DNA from: a virus
Taxonomy: Duplodnaviria; Heunggongvirae; Uroviricota; Caudoviricetes
Reading direction: 5' to 3' (one strand)
IMG/VR virus record: IMGVR_UViG_2703718789_000002
Length of the DNA stretch: 7,067 nt
This document shows, piece by piece, positions 2,465 through 7,067 of this stretch; the first letter of the stretch is position 1; the number at the start of each line of letters is the position of its first letter. The notes below the pieces were generated by a model. The model was not told the origin of the DNA. It searched no databases and was given only the letters and a program-made list of their open reading frames with translations. A program made the translations under genes and the position numbers.

Positions 2465-2755
2465 TCATCTTTTAACTCCATATACCGCCAATACCCGTTT
2501 CATCGCGGCACTCTGGCGACACTCCTTAAAAACCAGGTTCGTGCTCATCTTTCCTTCCCGTTCTTCCCTGGTAGCAAACCGGTAATACACCGTTCGCCAG
2601 ACCTTACCTTCGATAACCAGAAGACCTGCCCGTGCCATTTTAGCCGCGGCCTGATTTATGCTGGTTACTGTTGCGCCTGTTAGCGCGGCAACGTCCGGCG
2701 CACAGAAGCTATTATGCGTCCTCAGGTAATGAATAATTGCCTCTTTGCCCGTCAT
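2465..2755 (-). CDS. ren: Ren protein
   Basis: 96 aa MTGKEAIIHYLRTHNSFCAPDVAALTGATVTSINQAAAKMARAGLLVIEGKVWRTVYY..., matching lambda Ren as recalled. Start overlaps the P stop. Confidence 0.9.
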   Translation of the reverse strand: MTGKEAIIHYLRTHNSFCAPDVAALTGATVTSINQAAAKMARAGLLVIEGKVWRTVYYRFATREEREGKMSTNLVFKECRQSAAMKRVLAVYGVKR

Positions 2756-3453
2756 ACACTTGCTCCTTTCAGTCCGAACTTAGCTTTGATTTCTGCGATC
2801 TTCGCCAGAGCCTGTGCACGATTTAGAGGTCTACCGCCCATGACAGGAAGTTGTTTTACTGGTTCAGGGATCGCCTCACCACGGTTAATTCTCGCAGTCA
2901 TATGGACAAGCTCATCTGCGGCCTTACGGCGTAATTCCGCATCAGTAAGCGCATTGGCCCGCATGTTCTGATACAGGTTGGTAACCAGCCAGTAGTGCGC
3001 GTTTGATTTCCACGGATAAGACTCCGCATCCGGATACAGGCCTCGCTTCCGGCAATACTCGTAAACCATATCAACCAGCTCGCTGACGTTTGGCAGTCCG
3101 GCGATAACGGATGCTTCTTCCCGGCACCATGCAACAAACTGCCCGGGTGATGGCAGAAATGGTCGATTCTGCCGACGGGCTACGCGCATTCCTGCGTTAA
3201 CCTGTTCCATTGTGGTGATCCCGTTTTCCCGGAAAGCCAGAACCCACTGGCGGCGGATTTCGTTCAGTTCGTTCTGGTCACGGTTAGCCAGACTCGCCGG
3301 GAAAGTTGCCAGTAACTGGCTGAACACACCGTTGATGATCTGCGCTACCTGCTGTACCTGCGGCTTTTCGTCGTACTGTTCCGGCATGTTGTTGGCGATC
3401 CTACACATCTGCTCACGGTCAAAGTTAACCATCTGTGCGGCGATGTTTTTCAT
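2752..3453 (-). CDS. P: Replication protein P (DnaB helicase loader)
   Basis: 233 aa MKNIAAQMVNFDREQMCRIANNMPEQYDEKPQVQQ..., recognised as lambda P. ATGA overlap with the O stop at 3450-3453. Confidence 0.93.
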   Translation of the reverse strand: MKNIAAQMVNFDREQMCRIANNMPEQYDEKPQVQQVAQIINGVFSQLLATFPASLANRDQNELNEIRRQWVLAFRENGITTMEQVNAGMRVARRQNRPFLPSPGQFVAWCREEASVIAGLPNVSELVDMVYEYCRKRGLYPDAESYPWKSNAHYWLVTNLYQNMRANALTDAELRRKAADELVHMTARINRGEAIPEPVKQLPVMGGRPLNRAQALAKIAEIKAKFGLKGASV

Positions 3454-4349
3454 AGATCCACCCCGTAAATCCAGTCTGTGTTTGTCAGGTCGAGTTTTGG
3501 TTTGCTGGCTGTCACGACTGCCTGTTGCTTGTTACGGTTGATTTCGAGCTGGGTCCACTTGTCGCGGAGTTTGGCCGGGCTCAGCACGTTACCGGACCAG
3601 AAGTTGTCCTGGCATGCCCAGCGGAACAGCACGCACATGTCGCGGTGGTTACGTCCGTCACGTTCACGCATCAGGCGGATATCGTTAGCCCACCCAGCAA
3701 AATTCGGTTTTCTGGCTGATGGTGCGATAGTCTTCACCATGTCAAACATCCACTCTGCGGCGGTCAGGTCTTCTGCTGTCCCCCACTTGCTGCCGCTCTG
3801 AATTGCAGCATCCGGTTTCACCACAGAAAGGTCGTTTTCTGGCTGGTCAGAGGATTCGCCAGAATTCTCTGACGAATAATCTTTTCTTTTTTCTTTTGTA
3901 ATAGTGTCTTTTGTGTCCCCCTGTTTTGAGGGATAGCAATCCCCCAATTTGAGGGATGTTTTATCCCTCGTTTTAGGGGATTTTCCCTCGTTTTGAGGGA
4001 TGCACCATTCTGAGATGTTTTTATTTGGTCCAAACATGCCGCCTTGCTGCTTGATAATATTCATTCTGACGAGTTCTAACTTGGCTTCATTGCACCGTTT
4101 GACGGGTAACTTTGTAATCTCGCTAAGTTGAGAATCGGTGATTCTGTCCATTGGTTTATTCCACCCATAGGTTTTACGCAGAATGGCAAGCAGCACTTTA
4201 AACTGTCGCTTGGTCAGATCTGCGCCCGAATAAGCCTCAAGCAGCATATTTGATAGTCTGGCGTAACCATCATCGAGATCTGCCACATTACGCTCCTGTC
4301 CGGCAAAGTTACCTCTGCCGAAGTTGAGTATTTTTGCTGTATTTGTCAT
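3450..4349 (-). CDS. O: Replication initiator protein O
   Basis: 299 aa MTNTAKILNFGRGNFAGQERNVADLDDGYARLSNMLLEAYSG..., recognised as lambda O. The gene contains the iteron array (ori) in its middle, as in lambda. Confidence 0.93.
   Translation of the reverse strand: MTNTAKILNFGRGNFAGQERNVADLDDGYARLSNMLLEAYSGADLTKRQFKVLLAILRKTYGWNKPMDRITDSQLSEITKLPVKRCNEAKLELVRMNIIKQQGGMFGPNKNISEWCIPQNEGKSPKTRDKTSLKLGDCYPSKQGDTKDTITKEKRKDYSSENSGESSDQPENDLSVVKPDAAIQSGSKWGTAEDLTAAEWMFDMVKTIAPSARKPNFAGWANDIRLMRERDGRNHRDMCVLFRWACQDNFWSGNVLSPAKLRDKWTQLEINRNKQQAVVTASKPKLDLTNTDWIYGVDL
3880..4005. repeat. ori-lambda-like replication origin: four ~17-18 bp iterons plus adjacent AT-rich region, embedded in O
   Basis: Iterons on the plus strand: tccccctgttttgaggga (3916-3933), tcccccaatttgaggga (3940-3956), tccctcgttttagggga (3964-3980), tccctcgttttgaggga (3984-4000). 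Each is an inverted repeat TCCC...GGGA. Flanked at 3880-3915 by an AT-rich run (ttttctttttt cttttgtaatagtgtcttttgtg). Confidence 0.9.
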
Positions 4350-4695: not shown

Positions 4696-4754
4696 AACAA
4701 TTGATTGAATGTATGCAAATAAATGCATACACCATAGGTGTGGTTTAATTGGAT

Positions 4755-4786
4755 GCCCTTTTTCAGGGCTGTGATGTGTAAGAGCG
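4755..4786 (-). promoter_or_regulatory. nutR-like N-utilisation site (boxA + boxB hairpin), in the cro-cII spacer that also holds the tR1 region
   Basis: On the minus strand boxA CGCTCTTAC (complement of 4778-4786) is followed by boxB hairpin GCCCTGAAAAAGGGC (complement of 4755-4769). Order and spacing relative to cro and cII are as in lambda. A palindrome gtatgcaaataaatgcatac (4711-4730) lies between boxB and cII. Confidence 0.8.
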
Positions 4787-4793
4787 GTGTTAT

Positions 4794-5808
<1,015 letters not shown>

Positions 5809-5858
5809 TGATAAGTCGCCGAGATGCTCGTAGAGCATACAGCGATGCAGGAGAATTT

Positions 5859-6293
5859 ATGGCACTTAATTTAGAAAGAATATCTTTTATAACCCCATTT
5901 GATAGCAGCGAAGAACCCAACCAACCGACGCTTAATTTTACATGCAATGAATTTCCTGCGCGGCTATCAATTGATTTCAGGGTTGGTATGATCGGGTTGA
6001 AACCAAATTCAAGATATAATTTGGGTATTATGGTAATCCCCGCGCACCTAATTATAAAAAAAGGTGAGGAAATTCAATTCCCTGACGGCTCTTCGGAATC
6101 AGTTTCACTTTTCATCGATACGAAAGATAGCCATTTTGAAACAGGGGTTGGCGGACAGGTAATAGTAACATTGAAAGAAATTAGGATCCCAGCTAAAGGG
6201 CTGTATAGTGTTATAGGGAGATTGCAAGATAATGAAGACCCTAAAAATGAACTTCATAAAAATGAATCATTTTTCACCGTAGAGCTATTATGA
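5859..6293 (+). CDS. Hypothetical protein (soluble, ~144 aa), first gene of the cassette that occupies the rexA position
   Basis: ORF in frame with ORF-track 5805..6293. Preferred start is ATG 5859-5861, preceded by AGGAG (5849-5853) at 5-nt spacing. GTG 5805 and ATG 5808 are alternatives without a good SD. Translation MALNLERISFITPFDSSEEPNQPTLNFTCNEF...ESFFTVELL has no hydrophobic segment and no motif I recognise. It is not similar to lambda RexA. Confidence 0.7.
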   Translation: MALNLERISFITPFDSSEEPNQPTLNFTCNEFPARLSIDFRVGMIGLKPNSRYNLGIMVIPAHLIIKKGEEIQFPDGSSESVSLFIDTKDSHFETGVGGQVIVTLKEIRIPAKGLYSVIGRLQDNEDPKNELHKNESFFTVELL

Positions 6294-6892
6294 GTGACGA
6301 CAGCAATTTAAATAATCATGGAAAGCAAGACACCAACATATCTGAAAGCCGGAGGTTGAAGGTTGTTGGCGGTTCCGATTTTGAGGCTGAATTTGATAAT
6401 TCTCCCACCAAGGTGCAAAATAATTACATAAAACCGCCACAAACGGAGGAAGAAGTGGGAACGATCAGCAGAGAGGAACTTGATGCTCGCTTAGCTGCTA
6501 ATAAAGCAGAGATGGAGTCTATTGCTTCTTCCATTAGGGCTGACATGGCTCTATCTCGTGAAAGCGTTAATGTCCAATTTGCATCACTTAATGCGGCCAT
6601 AAGCTCTCTATCGTCCAAGATCGATGGAAAAATGGATAGCGCTGCTGGCGATTTAAAAGCAATTAATGGGAGATTCGAAGGAATTCAAGGACAAATAACA
6701 GGGGTTAATACCGCAATTAGTGGTGTTCAGTCGGGTATTTCTATACGATTAGCCATTTTTAGTGTCATTATCGCTGTAATAGTTGCGATTCCCGGGCTGG
6801 TATCAGCTTTAAAGTCAGACCACGCACCTTTGCAAGCGCCGCCACAAAATACCCAGCCAACAGACAACAAAAAAATCACTCCCCAGCATTAA
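6290..6892 (+). CDS. Hypothetical membrane-anchored coiled-coil protein (200 aa, single C-terminal TM helix), second gene of the cassette in the rexB position
   Basis: ATG 6290 overlaps the upstream stop (ATGA at 6290-6293). Polar N-terminus, then Ala/Ser/Ile-rich heptad-like helical region (aa ~60-150: REELDARLAANKAEMESIASSIRADMALSRESVNVQFASLNAAISSLSSKIDGK...), then hydrophobic helix LAIFSVIIAVIVAIPGLVSAL (aa 154-174, nt ~6749-6811), then a short Pro/Gln-rich tail. Not similar to lambda RexB, which is polytopic. Confidence 0.8.
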   Translation: MSDDSNLNNHGKQDTNISESRRLKVVGGSDFEAEFDNSPTKVQNNYIKPPQTEEEVGTISREELDARLAANKAEMESIASSIRADMALSRESVNVQFASLNAAISSLSSKIDGKMDSAAGDLKAINGRFEGIQGQITGVNTAISGVQSGISIRLAIFSVIIAVIVAIPGLVSALKSDHAPLQAPPQNTQPTDNKKITPQH

Positions 6893-6918
6893 CCCGGCCT
6901 CAGCGCCGGTTTTTCTTT
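6893..6918 (+). terminator. Putative Rho-independent terminator downstream of the cassette
   Basis: CCGGC (6894-6898), 6-nt loop, GCCGG (6905-6909), then TTTTTCTTT (6910-6918), immediately after the ORF B stop (taa 6890-6892). The stem is short (5 bp, all GC), so confidence is moderate. Confidence 0.55.
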
Positions 6919-7067
6919 GCCTCACGATCGCCCCACCTAAAAACACATAACCAATTGTATTTATTGGAAAATAAATAGATACAACTCACTAAACAACGCA
7001 ATTCTGATCTCTCCTTACATCGCCGAGGCAATACACTCACTCGTAAGCGTACAGCCTGAACCGTCTG

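Follow-up and report, generated by a model that had tools for sequence, protein, structure and literature searches.

Two overlapping genes, here called ORF A and ORF B, exactly replace rexA and rexB behind the repressor of a prophage that is, by its sequence, of lambda immunity, with the terminator Timm retained. The stretch analysed, referred to below as the window, comprises 7,067 nucleotides of a Caudoviricetes virus (IMG/VR record IMGVR_UViG_2703718789_000002). ORF B codes for a tail-anchored coiled-coil protein and, judged from its homologs, is a real, conserved prophage gene. The pair is a good candidate for a new anti-phage module. Because of its position and design we infer a Rex-like function: ORF A and ORF B would jointly bring about exclusion or abortive infection, ORF B being the membrane subunit that stays constant; this is the reading we prefer, although we rate it at somewhat short of an even chance. 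The features of the immunity region are:

5019–5088, both strands: oR operators with the divergent promoters pR (minus strand) and pRM (plus strand), mapped over from the HK244 annotation and from a promoter scan.
5095–5808, plus strand: cI repressor of lambda immunity type, 237 aa (Pfam HTH_3, E = 2.6e-11; Peptidase_S24, E = 4.6e-29).
5859–6293, plus strand: ORF A, soluble partner of 144 aa, a predicted all-beta Ig/Fn3-like sandwich.
6290–6892, plus strand: ORF B, tail-anchored coiled-coil protein of 200 aa plus stop, ATG to TAA.
6894–6919, plus strand: Timm, an intrinsic terminator kept from lambda, scanned as CCGGCCTCAGCGCCGG then TTTTTCTTTG and annotated as Timm in HK244.

The boundaries of the replacement are sharp. 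Positions 38300–37226 of lambda align with 4735–5809 of the window, covering oR and cI, at 96.6% identity, and lambda 35827–35708 aligns with 6890–7013 at 91.9%. The homology breaks off at the cI stop codon (5809) and restarts at the stop codon of ORF B and rexB (6890), and the DNA between these junctions gave no alignment to lambda. The pR, oR1–3 and pRM elements annotated in the HK244 record EF120457 map to the window at an offset of 4387, and the promoter scan placed the pR hexamers at 5047..5019. In lysogens, transcription of cI, ORF A and ORF B is expected to start at pRM, and Timm is the predicted end of their common transcript. The stop codon of ORF A and the start codon of ORF B share 4 nt (ATGA, 6290–6293); the start of ORF A is probably the ATG at 5859, not the GTG at 5805 given by the ORF finder. 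A terminator scan of the window found none between cI and ORF B, a promoter-like site is located at 6393–6421, and an Rfam scan of the window gave no RNA family above threshold. The initial annotation had proposed that the two genes form a cassette, and the overlap, the uninterrupted position behind cI and the ending at Timm bear this out. Taken together, the junctions, the HK244 promoter and terminator annotation and the lack of an internal terminator would put the cassette on the repressor transcript between cI and Timm, that is, in the rexAB slot.

The cI–N interval of lambdoid phages is the classic site of exclusion genes, of which rexAB has been known for more than 60 years and bstA is a newer example. 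The original description of these immunity regions is reportedly that of Degnan et al. in 2007. Between the same flanks other imm-lambda phages carry rexAB, a gene with an NYN domain or a 346-aa membrane protein. According to PMC8585504 the interval is a mosaic hotspot in which two abortive-infection systems, RexAB and BstA, are found and share the transcript of the repressor.

The protein encoded by ORF B falls into four parts, all on the plus strand:

6290–6460: head, aa 1–57, variable and probably disordered (from pLDDT, identity and dN/dS).
6461–6745: coiled-coil stalk, aa 58–152 (from periodicity, register and conservation).
6749–6811: sole transmembrane (TM) helix, aa 154–174, LAIFSVIIAVIVAIPGLVSAL (from Kyte–Doolittle hydropathy).
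6812–6889: Pro/Gln-rich C-terminal tail, aa 175–200, probably periplasmic (from composition).

The first ~60 residues are polar, as had been noted earlier, with S, N, E and D the commonest residues in aa 1–60. The head holds a short conserved motif, L-[KRQ]-V-[VI]-x-G-x-[DA]-F (RRLKVVGGSDFEAEF; alignment A1). The stalk opens with an S/T-R/K-x-E helix cap (ISREEL) and closes with four Gly-rich heptads (I-x-G-x-[IF]-x-G), the segment from aa 131 to 152 being free of charges. Residues G127, G131, G138, G145, Q147, S148, G149 and S151 are invariant in alignment A1, and one-heptad indels are present in the stalks of homologs. The hydrophobic residues of aa 56–152 recur with a helical period of 3.5–3.6 at a power reached by none of 2000 shuffles, in agreement with the heptad-like spacing first described. 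From about aa 100 to 153 they keep a single heptad register, with I, V, L or F at most core positions, and the register shifts upstream; core positions are mostly Ile or Val. The Ala/Ser/Ile/Gln richness claimed for aa 60–150 holds for A (14), S (13) and I (9) but not for Gln, which is not among the commonest residues there; Gly (8) is notable in aa 61–150, and Gln concentrates in the membrane-proximal stalk and the tail.

The 21-residue hydrophobic helix at aa 154–174 was correctly recognised in the initial annotation. It is the only membrane-grade segment of ORF B, with a Kyte–Doolittle 19-residue mean of 2.71, a value which none of 2000 composition-preserving shuffles reached. The short Pro/Gln-rich tail is likewise as described, with 5 Pro and 4 Gln in the 22 residues from aa 179 to 200; across the family the tail has a median length of 34 aa and contains 19.5% Pro and 16.9% Gln. 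Alleles of 200 and 206 aa differ by an 18-nt indel in this tail. The AlphaFold2 monomer model, of low overall confidence (pLDDT ~56), has helices at 61–139 and 149–173, with pLDDT 82–90 at aa 61–100, low values elsewhere and values below 50 at aa 1–35. A PDB sequence search with the family profile gave only weak coiled-coil matches (best E = 7.5e-4), almost all of them to trimeric viral or adhesin coiled coils, and these were used solely as a hint of a trimeric stalk. The Ile/Val-rich core positions are a second, indirect sign of this kind. The stalk would be a parallel, probably trimeric coiled coil like that of the DUF1640/CCDC90-like relatives discussed below.

Positive-inside counts across the family (1.26 K+R on the N-terminal side of the helix against 1.04 on the C-terminal side) do not settle the topology. 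Because 108–220 residues precede the TM helix without a signal peptide, the N-terminus is most simply placed in the cytoplasm. ORF B would then be tail-anchored in the inner membrane, with its N-terminal part of ~150 residues cytoplasmic and only the Pro/Gln tail periplasmic. This arrangement bears on a form of superinfection exclusion that is not abortive, in which ORF B with ORF A would block phage genome entry at the inner membrane and the cell would survive, for example by interference with the inner-membrane channel or receptor for DNA injection, resembling P22 SieA, T4 Imm, HK97 gp15 and lactococcal Sie2009. Prophage entry blockers beside repressor genes are a known theme, ORF B is a predicted membrane protein that would be co-expressed with the repressor in lysogens, and the tails of many homologs carry a conserved hydrophobic QPIIIQVPQ which could contact a periplasmic or membrane partner. 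However, the IIIQV stretch is absent from the E. coli alleles and, given a cytoplasmic N-terminus, only ~26–35 poorly conserved residues (tail identity 0.16) would reach the periplasm. Both the soluble partner and the conserved parts of ORF B that are under constraint probably lie in the cytoplasm, which is a better fit to sensing from inside, and we regard an entry block as unlikely.

ORF B matches PHROG 5820, a family of unknown function, with E = 4.7e-74, and reached no curated Pfam, NCBIfam or PADLOC family. It appears to be distantly related to the DUF1640/CCDC90-like tail-anchored coiled-coil proteins, so that the earlier statement that no named family could be assigned holds as regards the Pfam threshold and can be refined by the PHROG and by this distant relationship. 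Against PF07798, ORF B scores 12.6 bits (E = 0.13) and the best individually checked family member, P0110, 30.2 bits, both below the gathering threshold of 33.5 bits; 28 of 76 family members match at E ≤ 0.01. The family profile itself reaches the DUF1640-annotated proteins P0195 (E = 1.1e-22) and P0198 (E = 2.8e-18), scores that coiled-coil composition may inflate. With hhalign, alignment A1 and P0198 match at 98.8% probability (E = 6e-17), again with possible inflation by coiled-coil composition; the match is confined to the head and the N-terminal half of the stalk.

Proteins of the DUF1640/CCDC90-like family (PF07798; MCUR1, CCDC90B, Fmp32 and prokaryotic members) consist of an N-terminal head followed by a coiled-coil stalk, with a TM helix at the C-terminal end, and their stalk starts with a beta-layer motif, [aliphatic]-A-T-K-[polar]-[DE] (Hartmann et al. 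2016, PMC4786415). The stalk of ORF B similarly runs into a C-terminal TM helix, and its G-T-I-S-R-E-E-L resembles the beta-layer motif but is one residue shorter and may be a mere helix cap; homologs have [IVMF]-[ST]-[RK]-x-E-[LI] at this place and, in one case, F-T-K-T-E-L. DUF1640-annotated enterobacterial proteins also share with ORF B a place in a repressor–partner–X operon. The membrane-proximal stalk of ORF B differs from theirs in being a distinct Gly-rich heptad array. We know of no function for the prokaryotic DUF1640 proteins, and a search of the literature on phages carrying the cassette, on the PHROG and on DUF1640 found no functional study.

Other matches are all of the coiled-coil kind. 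Baculo_PEP_C reached E = 3.8e-4 and 21 bits against a cut-off of 38 bits, and SlaB and MakE also remained below threshold; none was taken as homology. The initial annotation had compared ORF B with small phage membrane-active proteins of the holin type, a comparison which we do not retain. A 200-aa protein exceeds typical holins, Pfam and PHROGs gave no holin match, and the gene belongs to an immunity operon and not to a lysis cassette. A single TM helix with a coiled coil is also the layout of XhlA, which ORF B recalls, and the weak matches, which are to Baculo_PEP_C and to coiled coils of phage fibres and needles, could suggest a structural role. ORF B nevertheless lies on the strand of the repressor between cI and Timm, with cI and N as neighbours, far from lysis and tail genes, and no holin, XhlA or structural family was found in Pfam or PHROGs (none at E ≤ 1 for holin and XhlA). 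A clear match to a virion structural family, which the earlier reading had named as a possible refutation, was looked for, and only sub-threshold coiled-coil similarities appeared. It is therefore extremely improbable that ORF B is a lysis protein of the holin or XhlA kind or a structural coiled-coil component of the virion.

ORF A has neither a predicted TM helix nor a predicted signal peptide and no significant Pfam, NCBIfam or PADLOC match, and its monomer model is of low overall confidence (pLDDT 56). At least three unrelated types of partner are found at the position of ORF A: the beta-sandwich, a CxxC...CxxC zinc ribbon and a type of ~98 aa. They are small binding-type folds and contain no enzymatic domain, and the partners of the other types matched no Pfam or PADLOC family. 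Neither ORF A nor ORF B matched any model in PADLOC-DB 2.0.0, nor did six further partners. The only matches to PADLOC models, weak and of the coiled-coil kind (LmuB, E = 1e-4; LeoC, E = 0.0035), came from two distant homologs of ORF B.

The family profile collects 293 cluster representatives at E ≤ 0.001; nearly all of the best 100 measure 160–270 aa and possess one hydrophobic helix, at the C-terminal end. In a comparison of 20 homologs belonging to other genera, identity is 65–67% in the core of ORF B, with a mean of 0.67 in the stalk, against 0.20 in the head and 0.16 in the tail. The core is under strong purifying selection (dN 0.14–0.28, with dS saturated), and the head evolves faster, with a dN/dS of ~0.4–0.85. 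HK244 and HK542, both isolated as viable phages, carry the same cassette, annotated as hypothetical and with pRM and Timm annotated. The cassette is present in 51 of 5426 complete E. coli genomes, and in 49 of these the match extends over 80% of the query or more. Occasional copies of the cassette have an ORF B that is truncated or disrupted by IS1.

Across Enterobacterales the relatives of ORF B almost always lie in the order repressor, small partner, ORF B homolog, a layout which is kept even in DUF1640-annotated relatives at 25–39% identity. The loci were scanned in viral contigs with alignment A1, the broader alignment A2 being too divergent. A same-strand partner ORF overlaps the ORF B homolog or lies within 18 nt of it in 50 of 52 scored loci. 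Distinct genes upstream of the partner/ORF B pairs have HTH_3 in 25 of 28 cases and Peptidase_S24 in 18. Repressors of 22 types (at 80% identity) precede cassettes, and more than 10 of these types precede a cassette of the ORF A type. A scan of species genomes, one per species, gave only 2 loci. In Xenorhabdus the pair adjoins a tape-measure-like gene and not a repressor.

Partners and heads, when clustered, show no cross-pairing: partner cluster P1 occurs with head cluster N1 in 33 loci, P2 with N2 in 5 and P4 with N3 in 4. The comparison of these sequences shows a modular design, in which the stalk and TM helix are conserved and head and partner are exchanged jointly. Since head and partner are linked as one unit, their co-variation is partly inheritance and not independent proof of contact. 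The suggestion that ORF B, as the second gene, is the effector of the cassette gains indirect support, because its core is constant while the partner and the N-terminus of ORF B swap jointly, and because the cassette occupies the exact position of lambda rexAB.

This modularity can also be read in terms of an addiction pair similar to toxin–antitoxin (TA) systems, with ORF B as a membrane toxin restrained by ORF A and the prophage stabilised as a result. The genes are small and translationally coupled, the soluble one first and the membrane one second; every type of ORF B head goes with a partner type of its own, and the occasional disrupted or truncated copies of ORF B would also fit. Known membrane toxins, however, are much smaller than ORF B, no TA family was matched, almost every E. 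coli copy of ORF B is intact, and the strict placement behind a repressor is atypical of TA modules. We consider an addiction pair very unlikely, although TA and abortive-infection roles of the cassette are not mutually exclusive.

The tie to the repressor raises a further alternative, namely that the cassette serves lysogeny or host physiology, with ORF B as a membrane scaffold that tunes a host complex or the lysis–lysogeny switch and induction. RexA is reported to tune this switch and induction, and the cassette is strictly tied to the repressor across 22 repressor types. There is also the distant profile-level link to the DUF1640/CCDC90-like proteins, whose eukaryotic relative MCUR1 is described as a scaffold factor for assembly of the mitochondrial calcium uniporter, MCU (PMC7519068). 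This link, however, is remote, sub-threshold and based on coiled coils. Head and partner change rapidly between close relatives, and the alternative cargos of the slot include known or typical defence genes, both of which look more like an arms-race locus than a housekeeping regulator. A role of this kind is distinctly unlikely.

We therefore return to the Rex-like exclusion or abortive-infection module, for which the rexAB slot, the cargos of the hotspot, the synteny with repressors, the modularity, the binding-type partners and the maintenance in E. coli argue. The cassette would be transcribed with cI from pRM or pRE as far as Timm and, being on the cI transcript, both proteins should be made in lysogens. 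The disordered head of ORF B would dock a soluble partner, at this locus the beta-sandwich ORF A, through the short L-K-V-V-x-G-x-D-F motif (RLKVVGGSDFEAEF), and the exchangeable partner and head would recognise something that a superinfecting phage makes or brings in. The conserved stalk and TM helix of ORF B would then act at the inner membrane, most likely by forming, from the charge-free Gly/Gln/Ile-rich stalk (aa 131–152) and the TM helix, a higher-order assembly that leaks ions. Against the Rex-like reading, chains with one TM helix each are ill suited to form a channel except by the assembly of many of them; the lack of a PADLOC model match, the literature search without a functional study, the Xenorhabdus pair without an adjoining repressor and the low-confidence monomer models also count against it.

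A broader proposal, which we find plausible but doubtful, is that such pairs form a widespread, unrecognised family of prophage defence systems with a constant effector stalk, trimeric, tail-anchored and of DUF1640 type, and an exchangeable head and sensor. The head and its matching soluble sensor (beta-sandwich, zinc ribbon or ~98-aa type) would set which phages are recognised, and the system would be firmly tied to the transcript of the repressor in lambdoid prophages throughout Enterobacterales. The cassette is annotated as hypothetical everywhere, although it is conserved with the same layout behind no fewer than 22 types of repressor in numerous genera of enterobacteria, and is absent from PADLOC-DB 2.0.0. 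Should the cassette be an exclusion or abortive-infection system, its two-part design would be new, a coiled-coil subunit anchored by its tail staying constant while head and sensor are swapped. Such a system would be readily testable, HK542 being a cultivable K-12 phage, and would account for resistance to phages in ~1% of sequenced E. coli, STEC-type strains among them. Prokaryotic members of the DUF1640/MCUR1 superfamily would thereby gain a first function. If not defensive, the cassette would still be a conserved repressor-linked membrane module in a lysogeny context.

Comparison with known systems shows likeness in position more than in sequence. The slot of lambda RexA and RexB is the same, bounded by the cI stop codon and by Timm and transcribed with the repressor, and in both cases the gene for the soluble protein precedes that for the inner-membrane protein; as to homology, no Rex match was found for ORF A or ORF B in PADLOC, Pfam or NCBIfam. 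RexB is described as a polytopic membrane protein and ion channel, whereas ORF B combines a long coiled coil with one hydrophobic segment, the TM helix near its C-terminal end. RexA, the product of an 840-nt gene, is reported as a DNA-binding protein (PMC11077077), unlike ORF A, a predicted beta-sandwich of 144 aa.

BstA of prophage BTP1 is encoded directly 3' of the repressor, presumably under the same promoter, and its synteny is kept across diverse prophages (PMC8585504), as is that of the repressor-linked ORF A and ORF B. It differs from the cassette in having no sequence similarity to it and in not being a two-part membrane system; BstA is described as a single protein which localises to sites of phage DNA replication. 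GiPD474, a Gifsy prophage defence protein, is an ATPase unrelated to the cassette. Gp30 and gp31 of mycobacteriophage Butters are said to pair a cytoplasmic with a membrane protein, the membrane partner being polytopic. They are presented as prophage-encoded proteins that aid host defence against viral attack (PMC7542560), and they differ from ORF A and ORF B in their unrelated sequences and in the phylum of the host.

The window comes from a lambda-like prophage, of which it comprises the immunity and replication region, and is of the lambda immunity type since positions 4735–5809 are 96.6% identical to lambda 38300–37226. Its features are as follows.

2752–3453, minus strand: P
3450–4349, minus strand: O
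4794–4994, minus strand: cro
Minus strand of the window: cII, ren, ninB and further nin genes
5095–5808, plus strand: cI repressor, 237 aa, with HTH_3 and Peptidase_S24 domains
6290–6892, plus strand: ORF B, 200 aa
6894–6919: GC-rich hairpin followed by a T-run

Homology to lambda stops at the cI stop codon and restarts exactly at the stop codon common to ORF B and rexB, continuing through the terminator Timm; the 1080-nt cassette of ORF A and ORF B is thus a precise replacement of rexA–rexB. ATG 5859, preceded by GGAGAA, is the most likely start of ORF A (144 aa), because it is so annotated in HK244, HK542 and RefSeq and the homologs align accordingly. This start lies 50 nt past the cI stop, the ORF A stop overlaps the ORF B start as ATGA, and a terminator scan of the window found no terminator-like site on the plus strand from cI to ORF B. 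We infer that both proteins are produced in lysogens from pRM. The long form of ORF A in the ORF list (162 aa) adds positions 5805–5858, starting at GTG 5805 and overlapping the cI stop, and is used by some metagenome gene calls (protein P0030). A sigma-70-like site (TTGATA, 17-nt spacer, CAAAAT; 9/12 matches) lies in the 5′ part of ORF B at 6393–6421, plus strand, but may be due to chance, as such sites are no commoner in the region than in shuffled sequence. Lambda rexA contains an internal promoter, pLit.

A near-identical region (99.9% over the cassette) is found in a prophage of E. coli 2013C-3264, adjoining tRNA-Arg and fimZ, where the two proteins (WP_001207141.1 and WP_001278659.1) are both labelled ‘hypothetical protein’. 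Phages HK244 and HK542 carry the same cassette at 96.6% identity, with pRM, the operators and Timm annotated around it; of 5426 complete E. coli genomes, 51 have it, chromosomal in every case. Other imm-lambda phages have different cargo between the same flanks.

Lambda (locus L064, 526–1815), SfI and ev243: rexAB
Phage ev099 (locus L069, 1237–2094): NYN-domain protein
Phage mEp332 (locus L003, 2832–3869): 346-aa ‘T2SS GspM containing protein’

The interval between a lambda-type cI and Timm behaves as a cargo hotspot. Owen et al. described the cI–N interval as a mosaic hotspot with rexAB and bstA, both of them abortive-infection systems that use the repressor promoter, which is highly transcribed (PMC8585504). 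Several E. coli-type loci (L022, ~2655–2996; also L021, L026 and L028) have an additional 113-aa ORF (MAFTDLEYQAVKKEV...KIYWMRKDMKWHQY...) between repressor and ORF A, giving an insert of three genes.

A word-index search found 29 relatives of ORF B in Klebsiella, Enterobacter, Cedecea, Salmonella, Yersinia and Pectobacterium, and an exhaustive profile search extended this to 293 cluster representatives (E ≤ 0.001), of which 101 pass E ≤ 1e-10. Among the 100 best-scoring, almost all have 160–270 aa and a single C-terminal hydrophobic helix; named members are ‘hypothetical’ without exception. The genomic context was compared in 52 loci, including the window. In 50 of these, a same-strand partner ORF of 92–162 aa overlaps the ORF B homolog or ends within 18 nt of it. 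The gene next upstream of the partner is a prophage repressor (HTH_3 in 25 and Peptidase_S24 in 18 of 28 distinct upstream proteins), beyond which lie a divergent cro-like gene and replication genes. The repressors form 22 types at 80% identity, more than 10 of which precede an ORF A-type cassette, indicating that the pair travels as a unit and repeatedly lands in the slot downstream of a repressor. Exceptions to this synteny exist: in Xenorhabdus anantnagensis (L009, 1943–5435) the ORF A-like/ORF B-like pair follows, instead of a repressor, a tape-measure-like protein of 656 aa and a small ORF resembling a lipoprotein, and a Yersinia copy is within a degraded prophage. The position of the cassette contradicts a lysis or structural role, and does not support the likeness to holins that the initial annotation noted for the layout of ORF B.

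The four segments claimed for ORF B were all found.

aa 1–60: polar head
aa 61–150: helical region rich in Ala, Ser, Ile and Gly
aa 154–174: single, strongly hydrophobic helix
C-terminal to this helix: Pro/Gln-rich tail

The Kyte–Doolittle 19-residue mean of aa 154–174 is 2.71, and aa 56–152 have a hydrophobic period of 3.5–3.6 residues; neither was matched by any of 2000 shuffles. The heptads keep a single register from about aa 100 into the transmembrane (TM) helix, with I, V, L or F in most core positions, the final four heptads reading I-x-G-x-[IF]-x-G, and aa 131–152 are free of charge. The AlphaFold2 monomer has helices at 61–139 and 149–173 with high confidence at aa 61–100 only, as expected if the chain needs partners to fold. 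We are highly confident of this anatomy. PDB sequence matches to the family are weak and nearly all to trimeric coiled coils, which, with the Ile/Val-rich core, suggests that the stalk is a trimer. ORF B is probably tail-anchored with a cytoplasmic N-terminus, since 108–220 residues precede the TM helix and there is no signal peptide; the flanking charges did not decide the topology.

None of the curated families in Pfam, NCBIfam and PADLOC was reached by ORF B, and PHROG 5820 and PHROG 5893, which contain ORF B and ORF A, respectively, have no assigned function. Sub-threshold matches to CCDC90-like/DUF1640 came from 28 of 76 family members at E ≤ 0.01, the best individually checked scoring 30.2 bits against a cut-off of 33.5 bits. 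The family profile matches proteins named DUF1640 by NCBI or UniRef (E 1e-22 to 3e-18), and hhalign against a DUF1640-annotated protein gave 98.8% probability, confined to the head and first half of the stalk. These DUF1640-annotated relatives likewise have the repressor–partner–X layout. DUF1640 proteins occur in prokaryotes and mitochondria as integral membrane proteins whose C-terminal stalk begins with a beta-layer motif (Hartmann et al., PMC4786415). The ORF B stalk cap, I-S-R-E-E-L, may be related to this motif but is shorter, and ORF B is therefore best described as a divergent relative of the same architecture rather than a demonstrated member.

Across genera, the core (stalk and TM helix) is 65–67% identical, compared with 16–20% for head and tail. 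The core has dN of 0.14–0.28 with dS saturated, and the head dN/dS of ~0.4–0.85. On sequence grounds, ORF B is a real gene.

The partners belong to more than one family, none of whose types matched Pfam or PADLOC.

143–159 aa: beta-sandwich type, including ORF A
~98 aa: a further type
110–121 aa: CxxC...CxxC zinc-ribbon type
Several singletons

ORF A is a predicted seven-strand beta-sandwich (pTM 0.52, pLDDT 56), its likenesses limited to generic Ig/Fn3-like domains and uncharacterised phage proteins. Partner and head clusters pair one-to-one (P1–N1 in 33 loci, P2–N2 in 5, P4–N3 in 4) with no cross-pairing, and stalk and TM helix remain alignable across differing heads and partners. The ORF A-type group keeps a single short motif, L-[KRQ]-V-[VI]-x-G-x-[DA]-F, in an otherwise divergent head. 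The head probably docks the partner, such that ORF A would bind that of ORF B, and together they would form an exchangeable specificity module upon a constant membrane stalk; the co-variation supports contact without proving it, because both are inherited together.

Position, operon, architecture, synteny and modularity are observed directly. As to function, the cassette may be a Rex-like exclusion or abortive-infection module, in which partner and head would detect an incoming phage and the inner membrane would be the target of the conserved stalk and TM helix. We hold this overall reading tentatively, as one falling a little short of probable. The charge-free Gly/Gln/Ile-rich stalk segment and the TM helix might together form part of a larger assembly that leaks, a specific pore that we consider rather unlikely. 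The pair could instead block entry non-abortively, provide a scaffold in lysogeny or host physiology, or be an addiction pair. Accessory or defence genes on the repressor transcript in the cI–N hotspot are already known; the architecture and breadth of conservation of ORF A/ORF B appear undescribed, and we found no functional study of the proteins in the literature. The cassette is a clean candidate, easy to test, and could provide a first function for bacterial DUF1640-like proteins. Numerous candidate defence loci exist already.

In E. coli CFSAN064035 (L070, 1982–3121), IS1A lies within ORF B past ~codon 137 and the TM helix is lost, and truncated products of 111 and 128 aa occur in other genomes (P0019, P0002), so that ORF B is occasionally inactivated. 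The HK542 allele (206 aa) is set apart from the 200-aa allele of the window by an indel of 18 nt within the Pro/Gln-rich tail (6830–6860); most other genera have a hydrophobic tail stretch, QPIIIQVPQ, absent from E. coli alleles. At 6650–6745 (aa 120–152), homologs differ by exact one-heptad insertions (e.g. IDGKIEG, IDGMGTA), so that the Gly-rich membrane-proximal stalk changes in length by whole heptads. Gly at aa 127, 131, 138, 145 and 149 is invariant in a 22-sequence alignment.
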